From Candidatus Eiseniibacteriota bacterium (GTDB taxonomy: Bacteria; Arandabacterota; Arandabacteria; Arandabacterales; Arandabacteraceae): a stretch of 10,214 nt of DNA. Positions within the stretch are counted from its first letter, which is position 1; each line of letters opens with the position of its first letter. The translations under genes were made by a program, and so were the position numbers. The notes under the pieces were generated by a model. That model worked only from the letters and a program-made list of their open reading frames with translations, ran no database searches and had not been told where the DNA came from. Below are positions 108-9,413 of this stretch, in pieces. The DNA lies in assembly GCA_043810925.1 (NCBI GenBank), contig JBDRNT010000156.1, positions 1 through 10,214 of the forward strand, written 5' to 3'.

Positions 108-147
108 AAGCCCTCGGCCCCTTAGGACACTAAGGGGCCAAGGGCTT
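108..147 (-). terminator. Strong hairpin, probable intrinsic terminator or processing stem-loop downstream of the lipoprotein-LysM operon
   Basis: Arms 108-125 (aagccctcggccccttag) and 130-147 (ctaaggggccaagggctt) form an 18-bp stem with a 4-nt loop. The single mismatch becomes a G-U pair only in the minus-strand RNA. It lies about 75 nt after the LysM stop, and the U-run is short (UUU). Confidence 0.75.
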
Positions 148-223: not shown

Positions 224-901
224 TTATCTGGGAATATCAAGTTCCCAGCCGGGCAGAATGAGATCCGGGTCGCTGATCTTGTCCTTGTTGGCTTCGTAGA
301 TCTTGGTCCACTGCCGCCAATTGCCATAGATTTCCCAGTATCCCGAGATCTTGCCCAGGTACTCACCCTCCATCACCTTGTGCATCGTGGGCAGGCCCCT
401 GGGGATCGCGAGCAGCCAGCCGGGGAAGATGAGGTTCGGATCCTTGATCTTGTCCCTGTTGGCGCGGTATATCCTCGGCCACAGGACCGGGCTGCTGTAG
501 ATCTCCTTGTATCCGGAAATCTTCGAGAGGCTCTCACCCCTCTTAACCGTCCACTCGGTGGGAAGGGCCTTAAGTTCGGCTATCTCCCGCTCGAGCTTCG
601 CTACCTCGGACTCGATGGGCTCCAGCTCGGTATCCACCTGCTTAAGCTGCGCCCTGAGATCGGCTACCGAAGCCTTAGCACCATCCAGGTCCGCAGTTGC
701 CTGACCCAGCAGCGCCGCCTGCTTTTCCTTCTCGCCGGCCAGGGAGGCGCAGTAAGCTTCTCTTTCCTTACCGGAAAGCTTCTGGTATTCCTCCTCGGTG
801 TAGAACTGGCCTCTTGATACATCCACCGCGAGTACGCTCGTTGCCAGAATCGAAAGAACTGCGAGCGATACTGCGGCAATAACCAGAATAGATTTCTTCA
901 T
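224..901 (-). CDS. Secreted coiled-coil protein with two C-terminal LysM peptidoglycan-binding domains (225 aa)
   Basis: Start moved from 946 to ATG 901 because GAGGAG (916-911) lies 9 nt upstream and MKKSILVIAAVSLAVLSILATSVLA is a typical Sec signal peptide. Heptad repeat spans about C51-L110. Two LysM repeats follow: WTVKRGESLSKIS...WPRIYRANRDKIKDPNLIFPGWLLAIP and HKVMEGEYLGKIS...WTKIYEANKDKISDPDLILPGWELDIP. Confidence 0.92.
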   Translation of the reverse strand: MKKSILVIAAVSLAVLSILATSVLAVDVSRGQFYTEEEYQKLSGKEREAYCASLAGEKEKQAALLGQATADLDGAKASVADLRAQLKQVDTELEPIESEVAKLEREIAELKALPTEWTVKRGESLSKISGYKEIYSSPVLWPRIYRANRDKIKDPNLIFPGWLLAIPRGLPTMHKVMEGEYLGKISGYWEIYGNWRQWTKIYEANKDKISDPDLILPGWELDIPR

Positions 902-945
902 TGTACTAAGCTCCTCTTGAAATCCATCAGGCATGGTTGCCCTCA

Positions 946-1233
946 TTATCGCCCACTACCCTTCTTAAGGGCCTCGAGCTCTTTCTCCAGTTTCTCAGGC
1001 TCATTACGGAGCTTCTCGAGTCTTGCTTCCTTGTCCTTGAGCTCCGTCGCGAGCTGCTCACGCTCAGCTTCGGCCTTTGCCAAGTCGCTCTGGACCGCAT
1101 CGGTCGCCGCCTGAACCTTCTGTACCTCCTGGGGAGGTACCGGGCACGGCGGTTTGGGTCCGCAGCCTATGCCGCACGCGAGCACTAATATGCCTACGGC
1201 CAGGACCACAGCCAGCACGCGCCTCGTGAACAT
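946..1233 (-). CDS. Small coiled-coil lipoprotein (95 aa), function unknown
   Basis: SD-like AAGGGGGTG upstream. Basic N-terminus and hydrophobic core end in lipobox-like Cys (VLAC20 or GIGC24). A Pro-rich linker GPKPPCPVPP precedes a continuous heptad repeat V37-L89. Co-oriented, 44 nt upstream of the LysM gene start. Confidence 0.85.
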   Translation of the reverse strand: MFTRRVLAVVLAVGILVLACGIGCGPKPPCPVPPQEVQKVQAATDAVQSDLAKAEAEREQLATELKDKEARLEKLRNEPEKLEKELEALKKGSGR

Positions 1234-1300: not shown

Positions 1301-1330
1301 ACTGTAACAAGGCACAATCCTCCTTGTCAA
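1301..1330 (-). promoter_or_regulatory. Sigma70-type promoter of the lipoprotein-LysM operon
   Basis: Minus strand: TTGACA (1330-1325), 18-nt spacer, TACAGT (1306-1301) preceded by an extended -10 TGn. Confidence 0.7.
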
Positions 1331-1455: not shown

Positions 1456-3825
1456 CTACCTCATTATGACAACCCTGCAGGTAGCCACTTCAGAGCCCAG
1501 GCGGAGCCGCACGAAGTATAGCCCGGGTTCCACCGATCCATCCCCGGACCAGGCCACTTCATGGTAGCCTGCCCCATACTGGCCCTCGGTGACCTTTGCT
1601 ACCAGGCGTCCGGAAACATCATACACATCGGCCTCGATCAGCCCATCCCGGGGCAATCCGAACCTGATTACGGTCCTGGTACTGAACGGATTGGGCACCG
1701 CACCGGATATCACAACCCGCGTGGGGATCCCGCCGTCGCCCGCTATTCCTGAGGTGGGATCGTAGATCTCAAAGTCGGCATCGCTGGCATCCTCACCACT
1801 GTTGGTCGCTGCGTCGTGGGCTACCACCTTGACCCGGGCCTGGGTCGTCGGAGCAACATCCACCTGCCAGGAGTAAGTGCCATCATTGGTCTCGCCCGTA
1901 GCGATAGTATGCGGATAAGTCGCCCCGCCATCACTCGAGAGCAGGATATCCACAGAGGTCACACCGATATTATCGGTGGCAGTCCACATGACATCGAAGA
2001 AGCTGTCCACATTCCAGGTCTCACCGCCATCGGGCTGGATCACCACAACCACCGGCGCCTCGCCATCGGCTAATGTAAAGCTGCCATCGCTTATGTCCTC
2101 ACCGGTATTCGAGTCGGCGTCATGGGCCACAACCTTGACCCGGGCCTGGGTCGTCGGAGCAACATCCACCTGCCAGGAGTAGGTGCCGTCATTGGCCTCG
2201 CCCGTGGCGATGGTGTGACCGTAAGAACCACCGCTATCGGTGGAGAGTAGAATATCAATCGAGGTTACTCCCACATCATCGGTGGCCGTCCAGGTGATGT
2301 CGAAGAAGCTGTCCACATTCCAGGTCTCACCGCCATCCGGCTGGTTTACCGTCACCACCGGCGGATCGGAAGATCCCGGGGTGAGCAGCAAAGTAACAGT
2401 CGGGGACGAGTTGGCCGGAATGTTGGCCGCGACATAATAAACCGCATAGGTACCGGAGTCGTCTACCTGCAGAAGGGTCCCCCCTCCAACACTCACTGTT
2501 CCCGGCTCATTGGGCATTATGAAGCGAATCACCGAGTGCTCGAAGTCCTCATTGATGTCATTGGTGATATCGGCGCTGACCGAATAGTATGTCCCGTTGT
2601 TTCCGGGGAAATAGTCGACGTAGAGGTTGTTACCGTCCGAGCCGGCGGAGACCGTTTCCGTGGGCTGGACCGTTCCACCCGACACGCGAATCATACGATA
2701 CGAGCGAGCGCCATCGCAGACATTGTCGGTCCTGACATAGTAAGGATGGGACCAATCGTCGTAGTCGCTGTGGGAGTGACCATAGAGCGCCATGTCGGCC
2801 CCAAGGCTATTGAGATCGATCTGGCTTGAGAAGTCGTAGTGGTAGAACAGCACGTGGGCTGCACTTCCGGATGCGGCGGCAATGTCATCGTCGAGCCACT
2901 GTATCTGGCCCGAGGTGAAGCTATCACTGCCGTAGGTACCCGGCCGCCAGTTGTCATAGTTAATGTAGGCCTCAAGCCCGATATAGTGCACGGAGCCGTA
3001 GTCGAAGCTGTAGTTCTGGGTATACCAGGGGGCGCCGGCCGGAGGGGAATCCAGCCGCTTCCAACCGAAGAACCTCCACCAGTTCCGGCGGGCATTGCCG
3101 TCGGGCGGCGGGGTGTCATCCCAGCCCCCGATGTCGTGGTTGCCCGAGGTCAGATAGACCGGCACATCGAACTCCTTGAGCAGGGCCTGAGTCCGGCTGT
3201 AGTACTTCTTGTCTAGGAACTCCTCCAGCTCGCCTTCGTTTATGAAATCGCCGGTTAACACCACAAACTCAGGATTGATGATGTTGACATCGTGGATTAC
3301 CGCCCTGAGGTCTTCCACCTCGGAGGAATCCGTGTCCGAACCCTCCTCATAGTAGTACAGGTGGGTCGGCAGATGGGTATCGGTTATGTGAATGAAGTAG
3401 TAGTCGTTCTTGAAGGCGGAGATGACGCGCACGGCATCCCAAGTGGTGTCATCTATTCCCCCGCTCGCGGTGACCCTCAGGTCATAGATCTCGTGAACCG
3501 GGACCACCGGCACCAGAACCTCGACCTCCCACCACTCGGTGGATGCATCATATGTCGAGGAAAGAACGGTGATGGGTACCGTGATCGATCCATAGACCAG
3601 CTCCGCCGCCCAGCCGGATGTGCCGGGACTCGCCTCGCAATCGATCGTGAATGTGCTTCCCTCAGTCACGATCGTGGGTATGTTGATCAGGGGCCTCTGG
3701 ATCACGGTGAGAGTGTCCCCGGTGGGTATGGCGCCGGCAGTGCCGGCTAAGAGAAGCAACATCAGGCCTGCCCCCACCACTCCGGCTCCAACAAAGAAAA
3801 AGACCGCACGCGGCCGTTTCTGCAT
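1456..3825 (-). CDS. Secreted calcineurin-like metallophosphoesterase with tandem Ig-like repeats and a C-terminal PNPF/FlgD-Ig (T9SS-like) sorting domain (789 aa)
   Basis: Start moved from 3900 to ATG 3825 because AGGAG (3838-3834) lies 8 nt upstream and a near-consensus promoter occupies 3877-3905. Signal peptide ends in ...AGTAGA. Metallophosphoesterase motifs: ITDTHL, TGDFIN, SGNHD, FYHY, YGHSH. Two PDGGETW Ig-like repeats. Tail: PNPF...IRFGLP...VYDVSGRLV...AGYHEVAW...PGLYFVRL. Confidence 0.9.
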   Translation of the reverse strand: MQKRPRAVFFFVGAGVVGAGLMLLLLAGTAGAIPTGDTLTVIQRPLINIPTIVTEGSTFTIDCEASPGTSGWAAELVYGSITVPITVLSSTYDASTEWWEVEVLVPVVPVHEIYDLRVTASGGIDDTTWDAVRVISAFKNDYYFIHITDTHLPTHLYYYEEGSDTDSSEVEDLRAVIHDVNIINPEFVVLTGDFINEGELEEFLDKKYYSRTQALLKEFDVPVYLTSGNHDIGGWDDTPPPDGNARRNWWRFFGWKRLDSPPAGAPWYTQNYSFDYGSVHYIGLEAYINYDNWRPGTYGSDSFTSGQIQWLDDDIAAASGSAAHVLFYHYDFSSQIDLNSLGADMALYGHSHSDYDDWSHPYYVRTDNVCDGARSYRMIRVSGGTVQPTETVSAGSDGNNLYVDYFPGNNGTYYSVSADITNDINEDFEHSVIRFIMPNEPGTVSVGGGTLLQVDDSGTYAVYYVAANIPANSSPTVTLLLTPGSSDPPVVTVNQPDGGETWNVDSFFDITWTATDDVGVTSIDILLSTDSGGSYGHTIATGEANDGTYSWQVDVAPTTQARVKVVAHDADSNTGEDISDGSFTLADGEAPVVVVIQPDGGETWNVDSFFDVMWTATDNIGVTSVDILLSSDGGATYPHTIATGETNDGTYSWQVDVAPTTQARVKVVAHDAATNSGEDASDADFEIYDPTSGIAGDGGIPTRVVISGAVPNPFSTRTVIRFGLPRDGLIEADVYDVSGRLVAKVTEGQYGAGYHEVAWSGDGSVEPGLYFVRLRLGSEVATCRVVIMR
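1759..2370 (-). repeat. Intragenic tandem duplication, 2 x 306 bp (102 aa), encoding Ig-like domains
   Basis: Units are about 1759-2064 and 2065-2370. Identical DNA blocks at 306-nt offset: 50 nt (1826-1875 = 2132-2181) and 38 nt (1994-2031 = 2300-2337). The protein repeats share QPDGGETWNVDSFFD and NDGTYSWQVDVAPTTQARVKVVAHDA. Confidence 0.95.
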
Positions 3826-3876
3826 CACGTTTTCTCCTGTCTGCGAACCCCACAGATGTTTGCGTTTATCATGGTA

Positions 3877-3905
3877 ATTATACCATACATTAGATGTCAT
3901 ATCAA
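3877..3905 (-). promoter_or_regulatory. Near-consensus sigma70 promoter of the metallophosphoesterase gene, overlapped by an inverted repeat
   Basis: Minus strand: TTGATA (3905-3900), 17-nt spacer, TGn-TATAAT (3882-3877). The inverted repeat ATGGTA-ATTA-TACCAT (3871-3886) covers the -10. Confidence 0.8.
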
Positions 3906-4185: not shown

Positions 4186-6051
4186 ATGTCAGTCCTTAAG
4201 ACCACTCTTGTTTCCGTCTTGGCCGGTACGGCACTTTTTGCCGGCTTGTGCGCGGCCCAGGAACTCAGTGACCCTTATGAGATTCTCGGGAAGCACTTCG
4301 AGGTTTCGGGGGGACTTATGCTCCTCAAGGCCGAGCAGACCCAGTACTTCGAGGGCAACCTCTCGCTGGCCGGGATGCAGGGGCCCATCAAGGCCTGGAC
4401 CGCCAAGCCCGACCGCAGCCGGGCCGAGGTCGTGATCGGTCCCATCAGCATAACCCAGGGAGAAACCGGAGACCTTTCCTGGATCCTGGACACCAACGGG
4501 AAGGTGCAGGTCATCACCAAAGAAGACGAGGCCACCCAGAAACGCAAAGAGGTGGCCAGGAGGATGGCCGATTATGAACACGCCGACCCTGGGTCGGATG
4601 TATTCACGGCGGCCTTCGAGGGCACCGAGACCGTCGATGAGACTGACTGCTATGTCGTCAAGGTGACCAACAGCATCAACACGGATCATTTCACTTACTA
4701 CATAGGCAAGAACGACTTTCTGCTCAAGAAGCGAATCGCGATACAGGCCGAGAAGAGCGGCGACAGCTACTACGGTGATTATCGTGAGGTCAGTGGATTG
4801 CTTGTACCCTTCTATACAAGGGAGATACCCCACCAGACGGGCCAGGCTCAGGAGATTACGATCGTCAATTACGAGTCCAACCCGGAGCTGGATCCGGCGA
4901 TATTCAATCCGCCCGAGCAAGGCGGCAAGGATTTCGAGTTCACTGCAGGCGACGCAGCGGAGAACATCCCGGTTGAATTCATAGGCAATCACCTCTTCAT
5001 TCCCGTTACCGTAAACGGAAAGGAAGATCTCTGGGTACTCGATACGGGTGCGGGAATGAGCGTGATCACCACCGGTTTCGCCGAAGAGCTTGGCCTCGAT
5101 CTCGAGGGCAACTTAAAGGGTGTGGGCGCCGGCGGAACAGTCGACGCCAGCTTTGCCCAGCTTCCCCCCTACCAGGTGAGCGGAATAAGCTTCAAGGGGC
5201 AGACCGTGGCCGTGATCGACATGAGTGAGCTCATGCGGAGGCTCGGTATTGATGTGCCGGGCATCCTCGGTTATGACTTCCTGTCCCGTTTCGTTACGAA
5301 GGTTGACTATGCCAATGAGCTTGTTTCCTTCTATGATCCCGGCACCTTCGATTACACAGGTGACGGTCAGGAGCTGGACGTGCACAGAAAGGAGAGCGTG
5401 TTTGAGACCTCGGCAACCCTGGACGGTGAACACTCCGGAACCTGGCTCTTTGACCTGGGCGCCGGCATGACCCACCTGGACGGCGCCTATGCCCTCCGGG
5501 AAGGCTACACCGAAAAACGCGGAATTCTGGCCAAGGGCCACGGGGCCGGCAACGAGATGCTGTTGAAAGCCATCAAGAGCGACAAGATTGAGCTCGCCGG
5601 TTTCACCATCACCGAACCACACATCAGTTTCTCATACGGCGGGACCGACACGGTGCTTGCGGCCGACAAGATTGGAATCCTGGGCAACACGCTGTTCAGG
5701 AACTTCGTGCTCTACGTCGACTATGCCAATGAGCGGGTGATCGTGGAGAAGGGCGAACGGTTCAACGAGCCCTGGCCCGAAGACCATTCGGGCCTCAGCT
5801 TCGGCTGGACGGTCGATTGGGATGCCATGGAAGTCCTCTATGTATCGCCCGACACGCCAGCCGACCAGGCGGGATTCGAAGACGGGGACATCCTGCTCTC
5901 AGTCGACGGAGAGAGCGTGGATGACCTGGGCGGAGTGATCGGCCTGAGGGAGCTCCTCAAGCAGGAGCCCGGTACGGTGCTGGAGATCGCGGTCCGGCGG
6001 GACGGCAAGGAGCGGAAGCTCTCGCTCACCCTGGCAGATCTTTTCGAGTAG
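4186..6051 (+). CDS. Secreted retropepsin-like (clan AA) aspartyl protease with two protease lobes, an N-terminal beta-rich (LolA-like/DUF620-like) domain and a C-terminal PDZ domain (621 aa)
   Basis: Strong SD AAGGAGG before the ATG, and a signal peptide. Lobe 1: WVLDTGAG (Asp codon 5041) ... GILGYDFL. Lobe 2: WLFDLGAG (Asp codon 5452) ... GILGNTLF. PDZ signature: VLYVSPDTPADQAGFEDGDILLSVDG...VRRDG. The N-terminal domain assignment is by resemblance only. Confidence 0.88.
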   Translation: MSVLKTTLVSVLAGTALFAGLCAAQELSDPYEILGKHFEVSGGLMLLKAEQTQYFEGNLSLAGMQGPIKAWTAKPDRSRAEVVIGPISITQGETGDLSWILDTNGKVQVITKEDEATQKRKEVARRMADYEHADPGSDVFTAAFEGTETVDETDCYVVKVTNSINTDHFTYYIGKNDFLLKKRIAIQAEKSGDSYYGDYREVSGLLVPFYTREIPHQTGQAQEITIVNYESNPELDPAIFNPPEQGGKDFEFTAGDAAENIPVEFIGNHLFIPVTVNGKEDLWVLDTGAGMSVITTGFAEELGLDLEGNLKGVGAGGTVDASFAQLPPYQVSGISFKGQTVAVIDMSELMRRLGIDVPGILGYDFLSRFVTKVDYANELVSFYDPGTFDYTGDGQELDVHRKESVFETSATLDGEHSGTWLFDLGAGMTHLDGAYALREGYTEKRGILAKGHGAGNEMLLKAIKSDKIELAGFTITEPHISFSYGGTDTVLAADKIGILGNTLFRNFVLYVDYANERVIVEKGERFNEPWPEDHSGLSFGWTVDWDAMEVLYVSPDTPADQAGFEDGDILLSVDGESVDDLGGVIGLRELLKQEPGTVLEIAVRRDGKERKLSLTLADLFE

Positions 6052-6106: not shown

Positions 6107-6643
6107 TCACAATAGCTTGATCATGTGAATGTCATCCGGCTCAAGGGTGAAGAGCTCCTCGTTGGCATCCTCTGTAGGTTTGAAGCCCCTCTCGAGGTAG
6201 AAACCCACGGCCGATTCTGACGCGATCGCGGAGACATACAACTTCTCTGCTCCAGCCTCACGGGCCAATCGTTCGGCTTCGGCCACCAGCATACTCGCGA
6301 CACCCCGCCTCCTGTATAAGCGGTCCACGTAGAGCGCGGCAAGCTGCGCCACGCCCTTGCTCAGCTCCGGTCTCATGATCGCGATGCCGGCCAGTGTCTC
6401 CCCCTCCAATGCGCCGAGCAGTACCCCTCCGTCTTCAAGGAGCGGGTTCCACTCCTCCATGCGTGCCCGGATACTGAAACCCTTCGACGGGTCGGCGGAC
6501 CACCGGGGCACCTTCCAGTCAACCTGCTGGGACTCGAGCACGCCCTTTTTGAATACATATCCTCTGGTGATGTGCTCCGAGCGGTCGATCTCGCCTACCC
6601 TGCTGATAGCCTCGTGCGGCAGCTTCCTGACAATCAAGTCCAT
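6107..6643 (-). CDS. GNAT family N-acetyltransferase (resembles B. subtilis YuaI-type proteins), about 178 aa
   Basis: Acetyl-CoA binding motif LYVDRLYRRRGVASML, plus SAVGFYLERGF. IDRSE near the N-terminus and EPDDIHM near the C-terminus recall YuaI-like proteins. ATG 6643 is preferred over 6706 to avoid overlapping the upstream gene; the RBS is weak and the start uncertain. Confidence 0.88.
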   Translation of the reverse strand: MDLIVRKLPHEAISRVGEIDRSEHITRGYVFKKGVLESQQVDWKVPRWSADPSKGFSIRARMEEWNPLLEDGGVLLGALEGETLAGIAIMRPELSKGVAQLAALYVDRLYRRRGVASMLVAEAERLAREAGAEKLYVSAIASESAVGFYLERGFKPTEDANEELFTLEPDDIHMIKLL

Positions 6644-6674
6644 CTCGACACTCGACAGTTGTTCGCTTGAAGGA

Positions 6675-7205
6675 TCACCGCGTCGATTCGATCCCTTCGC
6701 GGCCACGGATTTCTCGCTTCACGCGTTCATACACATGGTAGACTATGGGACACACCGAGCAGTTCGGAAAAGCGTAGCTGAGGCGGGACAAAAAGCCTGG
6801 CCTTTCCAGACCTGGATAAGAACGACAGGCCTCGGGCCTCTCCGGGTAGACACTGCACTCATTACCGGAAAGGAAGGGGCACGGGGAGAACTTCATAGAA
6901 TGCTTCTCGCCGCTGCTGGACACAGCGAGATACTCTCCGATCAGATCTTCGCGCGACATTCTCTTCAGGAGGGCGAGACGATCAATGTCTTCTGGAGTGA
7001 GTGGGGGGCAAAACACCTTACAGCAGTTCCCGCACTCCCGGCATTCGATCTGCTCGGATACCTCCTTGTAATGCTTCCGGGCAATAGCATCGATTTCCTC
7101 AGACGTCAGATCACTTGCTTCCAGCAAAGACCTGTACTGCCTGTCGTCATCGTAATTCGCCCTGGATATCTCTTCGAGCCTGCGGATATTGATCTTGAGT
7201 TTCAT
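6675..7205 (-). CDS. YkgJ family cysteine-cluster (CxxCxxCC, putative Zn/Fe-chelating) protein, about 176 aa
   Basis: CRECGNCC, then CPFLSGNECSVYPERPEACRSYP, and an extra CSVCP. Start is ATG 7205 (GGGACAGGAC upstream) or 7238. Confidence 0.9.
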   Translation of the reverse strand: MKLKINIRRLEEISRANYDDDRQYRSLLEASDLTSEEIDAIARKHYKEVSEQIECRECGNCCKVFCPPLTPEDIDRLALLKRMSREDLIGEYLAVSSSGEKHSMKFSPCPFLSGNECSVYPERPEACRSYPGLERPGFLSRLSYAFPNCSVCPIVYHVYERVKREIRGREGIESTR

Positions 7206-7319
7206 GTCCTGTCCCGGAAGTCTGAAAACGGCAACCATTGAAGCTTCGGCTGACGACCCTGCTAACTCAGGATACTACTGCTTCTTCCCGCGGAGGGATA
7301 CAACAATCAGTGCGGGAAC

Positions 7320-7348: not shown

Positions 7349-7388
7349 ACAGGGGACGGTCGACTTGTGTTCTCGTGAAGGGAGCGGA

Positions 7389-9413
7389 ATGCGCGGGTTT
7401 CTCTTGCTATCCTTGTTGCTGATCTCTTCACTCGCGGTCTCCCCCCTTGCGTCCCACGGCTTCGCCGATGACTACCAGCCGGTGGACCGGAGCATGCTCT
7501 GGAGATCGGACGAAGCTCACTCACACCTTGTTACCCCGGATCTCGCCGGCCGGGCACTCCAGGTGACAGCCTATGGTTACGACGTCCTCCACATGGATCT
7601 TGATCTCAGTATAGACCCCTCGACCAAGACGGTCGTGGGCGAGGCCATCATGACCGTAACCGTGACCGAGATGAGCCTGGACGAGGTACTGATCGACTTC
7701 ACCGACAGCCTGACGGTGACCGGCGCCGAGGTGGATGGTGTGCCCGTCGGATGGACTCACGGAGGCGACATCATAACCGTACCTGTGCTGCCCGCCGCTT
7801 CCATGGGTGACACCCTCACCATCACAGCAGGCTACTCCGGCCACCCGCCCGAGGTGGGAAACAAGGGAATGAAGTTCCAGACTTACGGGGGCTCTCCTCA
7901 TATCTACGTGCTGAGCACTCCCTACTCCACCCCGGCTATCACCGTGATACCGATGAGCAGCTACTGGCGTCCGTGCAAAGACGTTCCCGATGATAAGAGC
8001 ACCTTTTCGATCAGATTGACCGTCCCCGACACCCTTGTAGCCTGCTCCAACGGCTTGATGGCCGGAGATGTCACCAATGGCGACGGGACCCGGACCTTCA
8101 CCTGGCAGCATGACTACCCCGTCTCACCATATCTGATCGCCTTCGGAGCTTCCGACTATCTGACAATCGAGGAGACCTACACAGGTTCCGGAGACTCCAC
8201 CCTGATTCAGCACTTCGTGTTCCCCAACCGGTACACCCAGGGGCTGGAGAGCTTCAATATCACCGTTCCTGCGATCGAGTACCTGGCATCTATCTACGGG
8301 GAATACCCGTTCCTGGGTGAGAAGTTCGGGCACTTCACAATTGATGCCGGTGTCGCGGTGGAGGAACAGACTCTGGTGGCATATCCCTACACCTGTGTCA
8401 ACGGGGGGCACAGCTGTGACTGGCTGCTTGTTCATGAGCTGGCCCACCAGTGGTGGGGGGACTGCGTTACCTGTCGGGACTGGAAGGAAGTGTGGCTCAA
8501 TGAAGGTTTCGCGAGCTATTCGGAGGCGCTGTGGGTCGAACACAACGATGGGGCCGCGTATTTCCGCATCTATATGGAAGGGATGGACAATGGTCCCTAC
8601 AGCGGTACGGTCTACGATCCACCATATGTCTGGTCCTCAATCGTCTATGACAAGGGCGCCTGGACTCTGAACATGCTCCGCTGGGTAATGGACGATGAAG
8701 GTTTCTTCCAGATGCTGCTGGATTATAGACACGCTTATGAACACGGTAATGTGGTGACCGACGATCTTGTGTCTATCGCCGAATCTGTCTACGGGAACGA
8801 TCTCAACTGGTTCTTCGACCAATGGGTATACCGTGAGGGCAGGCCGGACTACGAGTACTGGTGGGAATACTCAGGCACAGGGCCCTATTCGGTAAACGTC
8901 TATGTCAGACAGGTCCAGTCGATGGCCTACCCGACCTACAAGATGCCGCTCAGGATAAGAATAAACACCACGACCGGAAGCGAAAGCTACACCGTCTGGG
9001 ACTCCTTGAGGACGCAGGCCTTTGTCCTCGAGGTCACCGACGAGCCCACGATTGTCGCCCTCGATCCGAAGCACAAGATCCTCGCGGACTTCACCGAGGT
9101 CACGGGAAGCGCCGTGAGAGATCCGGCCACCCGCGAGCAGGCTTTCCTCGCCCAAAACGTACCCAATCCGTTCAGGGCGCGGACGTTCATAGAGTTCGGG
9201 CTTCCGCGCGACGAGCGAATAGCGCTCCGCGTCTTTGACGTAGAGGGCCGCATGGTAAGAACCCTTGAGCGTGGGCGTCTCCCCGCAGGAGATTATCGCG
9301 TGTCATGGGATGGCCTGGACGACCGGGGGAATTCAGTCGCCCCGGGAGTTTACTTCTACCAGCTCGTGGGCCCCGACGGAGTCCGGAAGAACCGCATGCT
9401 GCTGCTTCGGTAA
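7389..9413 (+). CDS. Secreted M1 family zinc metallopeptidase (aminopeptidase N-like) with a C-terminal PNPF/FlgD-Ig (T9SS-like) sorting domain (674 aa)
   Basis: SD GAAGGGAG before ATG 7389 and signal peptide MRGFLLLSLLLISSLAVSPLASHGFA. HELAH (8433-8447)-X18-E in WLNEGFASY (8502), catalytic Tyr motif VYDKGA, and WRPCKDVPDDK. Tail: QNVPNPF...FDVEGRMVRTL...WDGLDDRG..VAPGVYFYQL. Confidence 0.93.
   Translation: MRGFLLLSLLLISSLAVSPLASHGFADDYQPVDRSMLWRSDEAHSHLVTPDLAGRALQVTAYGYDVLHMDLDLSIDPSTKTVVGEAIMTVTVTEMSLDEVLIDFTDSLTVTGAEVDGVPVGWTHGGDIITVPVLPAASMGDTLTITAGYSGHPPEVGNKGMKFQTYGGSPHIYVLSTPYSTPAITVIPMSSYWRPCKDVPDDKSTFSIRLTVPDTLVACSNGLMAGDVTNGDGTRTFTWQHDYPVSPYLIAFGASDYLTIEETYTGSGDSTLIQHFVFPNRYTQGLESFNITVPAIEYLASIYGEYPFLGEKFGHFTIDAGVAVEEQTLVAYPYTCVNGGHSCDWLLVHELAHQWWGDCVTCRDWKEVWLNEGFASYSEALWVEHNDGAAYFRIYMEGMDNGPYSGTVYDPPYVWSSIVYDKGAWTLNMLRWVMDDEGFFQMLLDYRHAYEHGNVVTDDLVSIAESVYGNDLNWFFDQWVYREGRPDYEYWWEYSGTGPYSVNVYVRQVQSMAYPTYKMPLRIRINTTTGSESYTVWDSLRTQAFVLEVTDEPTIVALDPKHKILADFTEVTGSAVRDPATREQAFLAQNVPNPFRARTFIEFGLPRDERIALRVFDVEGRMVRTLERGRLPAGDYRVSWDGLDDRGNSVAPGVYFYQLVGPDGVRKNRMLLLR

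Follow-up and report, generated by a model that had tools for sequence, protein, structure and literature searches.

The stretch analysed here (contig JBDRNT010000156.1 of assembly GCA_043810925.1, 10,214 nucleotides, referred to throughout as the window), from Candidatus Eiseniibacteriota bacterium, encodes on its minus strand, side by side, a small lipoprotein and a protein with two LysM domains. In our assessment the odds lie slightly on the side of the two being parts of one envelope complex, in which they would associate through a parallel, in-register hetero-coiled coil and act as a non-covalent tether between a membrane and peptidoglycan. An arrangement of this kind had been put forward in a preliminary description of the same DNA, and it holds up as far as the adjacency of the genes, the conservation, co-occurrence and co-movement of two cysteines and a maximum of charge complementarity are concerned; the accompanying expectation that the lengths of the whole coils co-vary does not hold. 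The idea of a hetero-coiled coil, as judged from sequence comparisons, is substantially strengthened by the co-movement of the cysteines along the coils together with the charge complementarity.

The two proteins carry complementary parts: the lipoprotein possesses a lipobox anchor and lacks a wall-binding domain, and its partner has two LysM domains and lacks an anchor. The lipoprotein contains cysteines at residues 20, 24 and 30, of which C20 lies inside the signal peptide, so that C30 is the only spare cysteine after lipidation of C24; C51 is the only cysteine of the LysM protein. The segments C30–K90 and C51–K111 align without gaps with 20 identities in 61 positions, the best count among all 61-residue windows, their a and d rows coincide at an offset of 21 residues with both cysteines on the a row, and L89 and L110 each lie 59 residues beyond the respective cysteine. 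Division of parts, identity count, register, spacing and the codons of both cysteines (Table 1) all agree with the preliminary description.

In the proposed complex the lipoprotein would be lipidated at C24 and anchored in a membrane, presumably in the inner leaflet of the outer membrane, and the LysM protein, itself unanchored, would be exported via a cleavable signal peptide. Pairing would be parallel, between the lipoprotein's coil of ~55 residues and the long N-terminal helix of its partner, with lipoprotein residue i opposite LysM residue i+21, C30 facing C51 at the membrane-proximal end and the two LysM domains lying ~9–10 nm off at the far end, placed for non-covalent binding to peptidoglycan. 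In this way the complex, a non-covalent analogue of Braun's lipoprotein made of two chains, would hold membrane and peptidoglycan a set distance apart; a disulfide between the apposed cysteines may lock or tune the pairing, or these residues may instead serve as a register-specifying contact in the core. Physical binding, its stoichiometry, the membrane concerned, the disulfide chemistry and the tethering function are what we infer from the comparative evidence.

Neither coil is covered by any Pfam, NCBIfam or PHROG family. The LysM protein contains two stretches that match the Pfam LysM family (PF01476; 39.9 bits, cut-off 20.9), no Pfam family exceeds its cut-off in the lipoprotein, and NCBIfam yielded only sub-threshold matches for either protein. 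Among these, the matches of the LysM protein to Kbp/YgaU (NF008399; 76.9 bits, cut-off 134) and LipL71 (NF033163; 66.2 bits, cut-off 600) involve the LysM part only. An AlphaFold2 model of the LysM protein, built on an alignment of 17 sequences, has a mean predicted local distance difference test score (pLDDT) of 85.1 and consists of a disordered signal peptide (pLDDT below 50 for residues 1–24), a short helix (residues 36–40), a single unbroken, solvent-exposed helix of 68 residues (44–111; pLDDT 83–95) and two units that both show the β-α-α-β fold of LysM. In this model the exposed 68-residue helix is one that appears to need a partner. Among solved structures only the LysM domains find matches, the nearest in sequence being the LysM of Kbp/YgaU (7pvc, 3e-10), a K+-binding protein, and a fold search with the model of a relative with a longer form of the LysM protein returned LysM matches only, including the tandem LysM structures 4uz3 and 4b8v. 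A search of the ESM Atlas with residues 26–116 gave no usable match. For the lipoprotein, a search of solved structures gave nothing below E 0.02; its 50 database relatives are unnamed, "hypothetical" or bear mutually inconsistent automatic names. A full-text literature search, with subscription journals outside its coverage, found no paper describing such a lipoprotein/LysM pair.

Conservation of the pair and co-variation of its cysteines

The adjacency of the two genes, which the preliminary description had taken as a condition of its proposal, is retained among relatives from the same family, order and class: in 16 of 17 loci the lipoprotein gene immediately precedes the LysM gene on the same strand, and the remaining locus is interrupted by a contig end. 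One locus, 93% identical to that of the window, is labelled Candidatus Eisenbacteria. In a scan of species-representative genomes the pair was recognised automatically in 27 of 80 loci, with labels that include Eisenbacteria, Zixibacteria, Cloacimonadota, WOR-3, Gemmatimonadota, Latescibacterota, Calditrichota, Deferribacteres, metagenome-assembled genomes of Ignavibacteria/Bacteroidetes, and Kryptoniota; it spans at least 10 phylum-level labels and is also present in Desulfurobacteriaceae, as judged by eye, and in further genomes. The pair is often flanked by aspS and phoH/ybeY, including in distant phyla, and a second copy of the whole pair resides between these genes in the window's own genome (Table 1), its lipoprotein being 53% and its LysM protein 71% identical to those of the window. 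Since the order aspS-pair-phoH is shared by distant phyla, the copy in the window would seem to be the duplicated and relocated one.

Variants of the pair were also encountered. In some lineages (L130, L131, L141, L038, L030, L072 and L157) a lipobox is found on the LysM protein as well, next to an upstream lipoprotein that has been retained; the two chains would in that case share one membrane as their anchor, an arrangement that would fit parallel pairing. In one lineage (L027/L127, L128 and L036, genomes G024 and G193) an all-helical lipoprotein of ~325 residues takes the place of the small one, directly upstream of a short protein with a coil and two LysM domains, and neither has a spare cysteine.

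Within the phylum, both cysteines are conserved as had been anticipated, C30, C51 and the lipobox C24 each being invariant in 17 of 17 sequences, whereas C20 is confined to 2 of the 17 aligned lipoproteins (that of the window and L012). A wider comparison covered 69 distinct pairs, which form 33 clusters when their lipoproteins are grouped at 50% identity. Left out were pairs with an upstream lipoprotein of more than 130 residues (L063, L027/L127, L128, L036) and four loci of the Desulfurobacteriaceae type (L030, L064, L072, L157) in which the lipobox was missed by the search pattern and which, by eye, have a coil cysteine in both proteins. A spare cysteine is present in both proteins in 19 of the 33 clusters, in neither in nine, in the LysM protein only in five and in the lipoprotein only in none (Fisher p 5e-5).

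The position of the cysteine is a stronger result than its presence. Counted from the lipid cysteine in the lipoprotein and from the rule-predicted mature N-terminus in the LysM protein, the height of the cysteine varies widely among lineages, yet in many of them it is equal in the two partners, with lipoprotein/LysM positions of 3/6, 17/18, 17/17, 20/20, 20/25, 30/32, 36/37, 50/51, 51/53 and 67/65. When the six Eisenbacteria-type clusters are collapsed to one state, 14 states result, and in nine of these the positions agree within 3 residues, a number reached by 1 of 20000 permutations of partners and by none of 20000 uniform placements. Four of the states (17/17, 20/20, 36/37 and 51/53) come from a second, separately fetched set. 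A Pro-rich N-terminus of the lipoprotein also tends to go together with the aromatic motif Y-x-x-E-E-Y in its partner (8/1/0/24 clusters), a correlation that may stem from a small number of evolutionary events.

An additional line of evidence is provided by charge. Pairs of residues at g and e' were scored assuming a parallel dimer, the cysteines playing no part in the score. For the Eisenbacteria type (17 pairs), the score of the heterodimer at offset 21 averages +3.94, a net attraction, and is never negative, whereas the homodimers are net repulsive on average (-1.76 for the lipoprotein and -0.82 for the LysM protein). When offsets from 0 to 35 are compared, the Cys-aligned offset of 21 is the maximum; the next best scores +2.53 and the other in-phase offsets range from -1.24 to +0.65. 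Scoring was possible for nine clusters, each with two or more members and with the offset implied by its cysteines within the range scanned; in five of them, the Eisenbacteria type included (four of eight without it), this offset ranks first or second of 57. The charge maximum at the Cys-aligned register favours hetero- over homo-pairing.

The nature of the anchoring membrane is suggested by two observations. Asp is found at position +2 of the lipoprotein in none of the 33 cluster representatives; in E. coli an Asp at this position directs retention in the inner membrane, a rule that may not apply here. Furthermore, the window's own genome encodes a 431-residue protein (Table 1) that joins a PorV/PorQ-like outer-membrane barrel (NF033709; 83.1 bits, cut-off 90, residues 21–287 of 431) to a Pro-rich linker, a cysteine, a coil of ~60 residues and one LysM domain. 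The cysteine is the only one of the fusion protein and is conserved in a same-genus orthologue; its gene adjoins one for a protein with a C-terminal domain of the type IX secretion system (T9SS) type and has no lipoprotein gene next to it. From the order of its parts, the fusion is apparently a single-chain version of the same design, built on an outer-membrane anchor, and outer-membrane anchoring of the lipoprotein would be the corresponding arrangement in two chains.

Contrary evidence and alternative readings

Several observations weigh against a paired tether. The lengths of the coils, expected in the preliminary description to vary together, do not: the mature lipoprotein measures 59–92 residues and the LysM-protein spacer 70–223 (Spearman -0.43), although the first helix of the LysM protein (68 residues here, 54 in the long form) stays near the length of the lipoprotein coil. 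Two orthologues (L021, L023) have a 2-residue deletion in the lipoprotein coil and no matching change in the partner. Five clusters keep a cysteine in the LysM protein only (L044, L046, L087, L158, L164), and the positions of the cysteines disagree in L067 (21/67), L133 (61/115) and L142 (19,56/7,80). In the model of the long form from L133, helix 1 has 54 residues and is followed by shorter helices that fold back, and the mature Cys115 may lie near the end of helix 1, where Cys61 of the lipoprotein would sit, a placement that refers to the order of helices only. The raw positions in the Eisenbacteria type are 13–27 residues apart because the LysM protein carries an N-terminal extension. The clusters are related by descent and the p-values consequently overstate independence; the charge score is noisy for single sequences, and the charge test fails in L025, L029, L043 and L050 (ranks 24–39 of 57).

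The resemblance of the two coils, taken by itself, exceeds the effect of heptad composition only marginally, in keeping with the caveat of the preliminary description that coiled-coil composition inflates identity. BLASTP aligns the two proteins with 16 identities in 42 positions (E 1e-4), and the count of 20 identities is reached by none of 500 composition shuffles, yet by 2 of 500 shuffles that preserve the heptads; with cysteines masked and BLOSUM62 scoring, offset 21 ranks first of 90, with z 1.7 and a score that 13 of 200 heptad shuffles reach, so that similarity is marginal under this control. In most other lineages it is not significant by the same scoring against heptad-shuffled nulls, the highest z for an alignment of the coils being 2.6 and the Cys offset ranking first to third in 6 of 19 clusters. 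Common descent of the two coils is not claimed. A simple periodicity score gave the cysteines a clear d/d heptad position in no clusters other than L050, L132 and L138; its results were noisy for the rest and were not used as evidence.

Disulfide chemistry and the place of the pair among other tethers raise further difficulties. Pfam searches of the window's own genome, 91.7% complete, did not find DsbA, DsbB, VKOR or Thioredoxin_4, and among 38 carrier genomes DsbB and VKOR were found in none, DsbA in five and Thioredoxin_4 in four, their presence not tracking the Cys pair. A putative disulfide between C30 and C51 might arise spontaneously from apposed thiols, or the cysteines could instead constitute a register-specifying core contact or a metal site. 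Conserved paired extracytoplasmic cysteines are nevertheless common in the proteins of these genomes, in which DsbA-type proteins are few. A more ambitious version, in which the pair would be an ancient two-chain tether of many non-proteobacterial diderm phyla (among them the FCB group, Deferribacterota and Aquificota), in which the coil of the lipoprotein captures a soluble LysM protein and a Cys pair renders the attachment reversible and redox-tunable without Dsb enzymes, seems to us rather unlikely; if it were true, cells could respond to oxidants by loosening or tightening the outer membrane, with changes in vesiculation and periplasmic width. The window's own genome also contains three YkuD enzymes and six OmpA-domain proteins, one of which is a Pal-like open reading frame of 206 residues. 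Given the six OmpA-domain proteins, the pair would not be a unique substitute for Lpp but one tether among several. LolA was not found by Pfam in this genome, a result that is uninformative, as a Bacteroides control was equally silent.

The two proteins could act in one process without sharing a coil, if the lipoprotein formed an Lpp-like homo-oligomer, the LysM protein a homodimer linked through C51–C51, and adjacency reflected co-regulation. Members of the Lpp family do form homo-oligomers, and Cys-linked homodimers are described for LppB (10.1101/2025.11.13.688167). In a parallel homodimer any core cysteine automatically lies opposite its own copy, which would suit the clusters with a cysteine in the LysM protein alone as well as the PorV-like fusion, in which a single cysteine precedes the coil next to no lipoprotein gene, and the similarity of the coils could owe much to composition, as the heptad shuffles indicate. 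We nevertheless consider separate homo-oligomers a minor contender, since they leave unexplained why a spare cysteine occurs in the lipoprotein only when the partner has one (19 clusters versus 0) and why its height is equal in nine of the 14 states, and since the g–e' charges give net repulsion in either homodimer and attraction in the heterodimer when the cysteines are aligned.

Comparable, in our estimate, is the chance that a hetero-complex is real and is not an outer-membrane tether, being anchored in the inner membrane or serving division or peptidoglycan remodelling in the manner of the coiled-coil/LysM factors EnvC, NlpD and DipM. LysM domains would then target particular glycan strands, a helical bundle that long-form relatives insert between the long helix and LysM (helices 88–156 in the model) could be a binding platform, and the OmpA/Pal-type proteins of the genome would already supply tethers; sorting to the outer membrane is itself a prediction, and LolA was not detected by Pfam. 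Sub-threshold matches of relatives to the DivIC/FtsB/FtsL family (PF04977) point the same way, the best having 26.4 bits against a cut-off of 28.9 (the LysM protein of the window has 11.8), as do the automatic names "EnvC", "CwlO-like" or "FtsB" of homologues in source databases. These names, however, contradict one another, and in place of a transmembrane helix of the FtsB type the pair has a lipobox and a cleavable signal peptide. Profile searches detected no LytM, amidase or other catalytic or regulatory domain in the pair, its conserved neighbours are aspS, phoH and ybeY rather than division genes, and in the window's own genome an outer-membrane PorV/PorQ-like barrel carries the same coil-LysM module. 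Far less probable than either of these readings is a chance resemblance of coils and cysteines or a spanin-like lysis cassette of phage origin. Rz/Rz1 spanins likewise combine a Pro-rich lipoprotein, a coiled-coil periplasmic partner and Cys links, and weak NCBIfam matches to an Rz-like LysB model were obtained (E 0.19 and 0.058). Among PHROGs, however, none of the spanin or lysis type matches the lipoprotein, and those that match the LysM protein do so via its LysM domains only; the lipoprotein gene comes first, the pair is conserved across phyla and its neighbours are housekeeping or secreted-enzyme genes, on which grounds the spanin reading was rejected, and the statistics of cysteines and charges exclude chance. 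The paired tether is the reading that we prefer.

Layout of the locus and its surroundings

The elements of the locus, together with related loci elsewhere in the genome and the neighbouring genes, are compiled in Table 1.

Table 1. Coordinates of the gene pair, its parts and surroundings (window positions unless a contig is named)
Feature	Position	Strand	Remarks
Lipoprotein gene	946..1233	-	95 aa, stop included; lipobox G-I-G-C24; open reading frame and alignment of relatives
Pro-rich linker GPKPPC30PVPP, heptad coil (~residues 37–90) and conserved tail KKGSGR	within 946..1233	-	
Codon of C30	1144..1146	-	only Cys left in the mature lipoprotein once C24 is lipidated
Lipoprotein coiled-coil segment, residues 37–90	964..1125	-	heptad table; a = 37, 44 ... 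86; d = 40 ... 89
Intergenic spacer, 44 nt	902..945	-	from stop TAA (946–948) to ATG at 901
Ribosome-binding site GAGGAG	within 902..945	-	~9 nt upstream of MKKS start; read from sequence
LysM-protein gene	224..901	-	225 aa, stop included, from MKKS start
LysM-protein signal peptide, residues 1–25, ending V-L-A	827..901	-	A-x-A motif conserved
Codon of C51	749..751	-	sole Cys of the LysM protein
Long helix of LysM protein, residues 44–111	569..772	-	holds segment aligning with lipoprotein coil, offset 21
LysM domain 1, ~residues 116–167	401..556	-	Pfam and AlphaFold2 model
LysM domain 2, ~residues 173–224	230..385	-	Pfam and AlphaFold2 model
Promoter-like site TTGACA, 18-nt spacer, TACAGT	1301..1330	-	TG before second hexamer; 10/12 matches
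G+C-rich hairpin, 18 bp	108..147	-	77 nt downstream of LysM stop codon; folding energy
Second copy of the pair	L002 1147–1434 and 1480–2166 (G000:C164)		
Barrel-coil-LysM fusion	L003 562–1857 (G000:C151)		orthologue L035 556–1857
Large secreted metallophosphoesterase	1456–3900	-	Ig-like repeats; C-terminal FlgD_ig/T9SS-type sorting domain
Secreted 621-aa protein	4186–6051	+	retropepsin-like aspartyl protease domain (Asp_protease_2), C-terminal PDZ
GNAT acetyltransferase open reading frame	6107–6706	-	32-nt overlap with the next
CxxCxxCC (putative Zn/Fe-chelating) open reading frame	6675–7238	-	
Large secreted M1 peptidase	7365–9413	+	C-terminal FlgD_ig/T9SS-type sorting domain

As part of our best explanation, the lipoprotein and LysM genes would form a small operon. 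Both the intergenic spacer and an MKKS-type start of the LysM protein are kept in relatives. An 811-nt contig from an RNA library of an 88%-identical relative spans window positions 434–1221, that is, parts of both genes and the spacer, and further RNA-library contigs from relatives bridge both genes with less than 31 nt on one side; these are a hint of expression and no proof of a single transcript. The promoter-like site constitutes weak evidence, one site having been found where 0.8 are expected in shuffled sequence. The hairpin beyond the LysM gene resembles a terminator, but only three U follow it; the stretch of 136 nt that contains it folds with -58.7 kcal/mol (z -5.2; none of 200 shuffles folds as well), and a consensus scan did not call it as a terminator. 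Cleavage of the LysM-protein signal peptide is a rule prediction only, at VLA|VD or alternatively at SRG|Q.

Among the other genes of the window, the two C-terminal domains of the T9SS type suggest, as sequence features, type IX secretion in this Eisenbacteria genome. The overlap between the acetyltransferase and CxxCxxCC open reading frames was counted from the first start codons, and the true start of the former probably lies further downstream.

Relation to known tethers

How the outer membrane is attached to peptidoglycan is understood only in part for diderms beyond Proteobacteria, Lpp being confined to a few lineages and others relying on Pal, OmpA and OmpM. In this context the pair would represent a widely conserved variant of a membrane-to-peptidoglycan tether, made of known parts in a new two-chain arrangement. 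If the proposal is true, it defines an architecture that distributes anchor and wall-binder over two chains held together by a coiled coil, making it a naturally occurring example of a split "molecular ruler". The co-movement of cysteines along the coil would be a clean evolutionary signature of a specific parallel heterodimer, usable for finding other pairs, and the Cys pair itself offers a built-in experimental handle.

The lipoprotein resembles Lpp/OprI in being a small lipobox protein that consists almost entirely of one coiled coil of ~55–60 residues, with an invariant lipobox cysteine and unbroken heptads over residues 37–89, and in the spacing role proposed here. It differs in sequence, scoring 17.4 bits (relatives 20.4–23.4) against a cut-off of 43 for Lpp/OprI (NF040598), and in its tail, which lacks the C-terminal Lys: the protein ends with Arg in 13 of 17 sequences (14 of 17 if the aligned tail position is counted) and with Lys in one of 17, so that no covalent link of the Ldt type is expected. 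Moreover, wall binding is here assigned to a second chain with LysM, and the pairing is proposed to be hetero rather than homotrimeric. Another parallel is Salmonella LppB, described as a coiled-coil tether lipoprotein that has a spare cysteine, forms disulfide-linked species, hetero-oligomerises with another coiled-coil chain and was proposed to tune tethering between outer membrane and peptidoglycan (10.1101/2025.11.13.688167). In that case, however, the partner is another Lpp lipoprotein, the cysteine is C-terminal, attachment to peptidoglycan is covalent through Lys and the host has DsbA and DsbB, in contrast to the carrier genomes considered here.

Non-covalent tethering by a wall-binding domain on an outer-membrane anchor would be shared with the OmpM/SLH and Pal/OmpA systems. 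OmpM of Terrabacteria diderms is reported to have its wall-binding domain joined to the outer-membrane anchor by a coiled-coil stalk (PMC10628300). These are single chains with SLH or OmpA-like domains, whereas here the chains are separate and the binder is LysM; within the window's own genome, the barrel-coil-LysM protein of PorV/PorQ-like type is the single-chain analogue. Among spirochaetes, BB0323 is described as working with a second protein, BB0238, through its N-terminal region (PMC5462797). Like the LysM protein, BB0323 and LipL71/LruA belong to the envelope and combine a helical N-terminal region with LysM at the C-terminus, the difference being that the lipoprotein BB0323 itself carries LysM. 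To our knowledge, BB0238 is not a coiled-coil lipoprotein, and we know of no adjacency or Cys-pair logic for BB0323 and BB0238. Spanins, finally, are chains anchored in the inner and the outer membrane that meet tip to tip and are encoded in lysis cassettes, whereas the chains of the pair described here would lie side by side, one of them combining a cleavable signal peptide with LysM domains.

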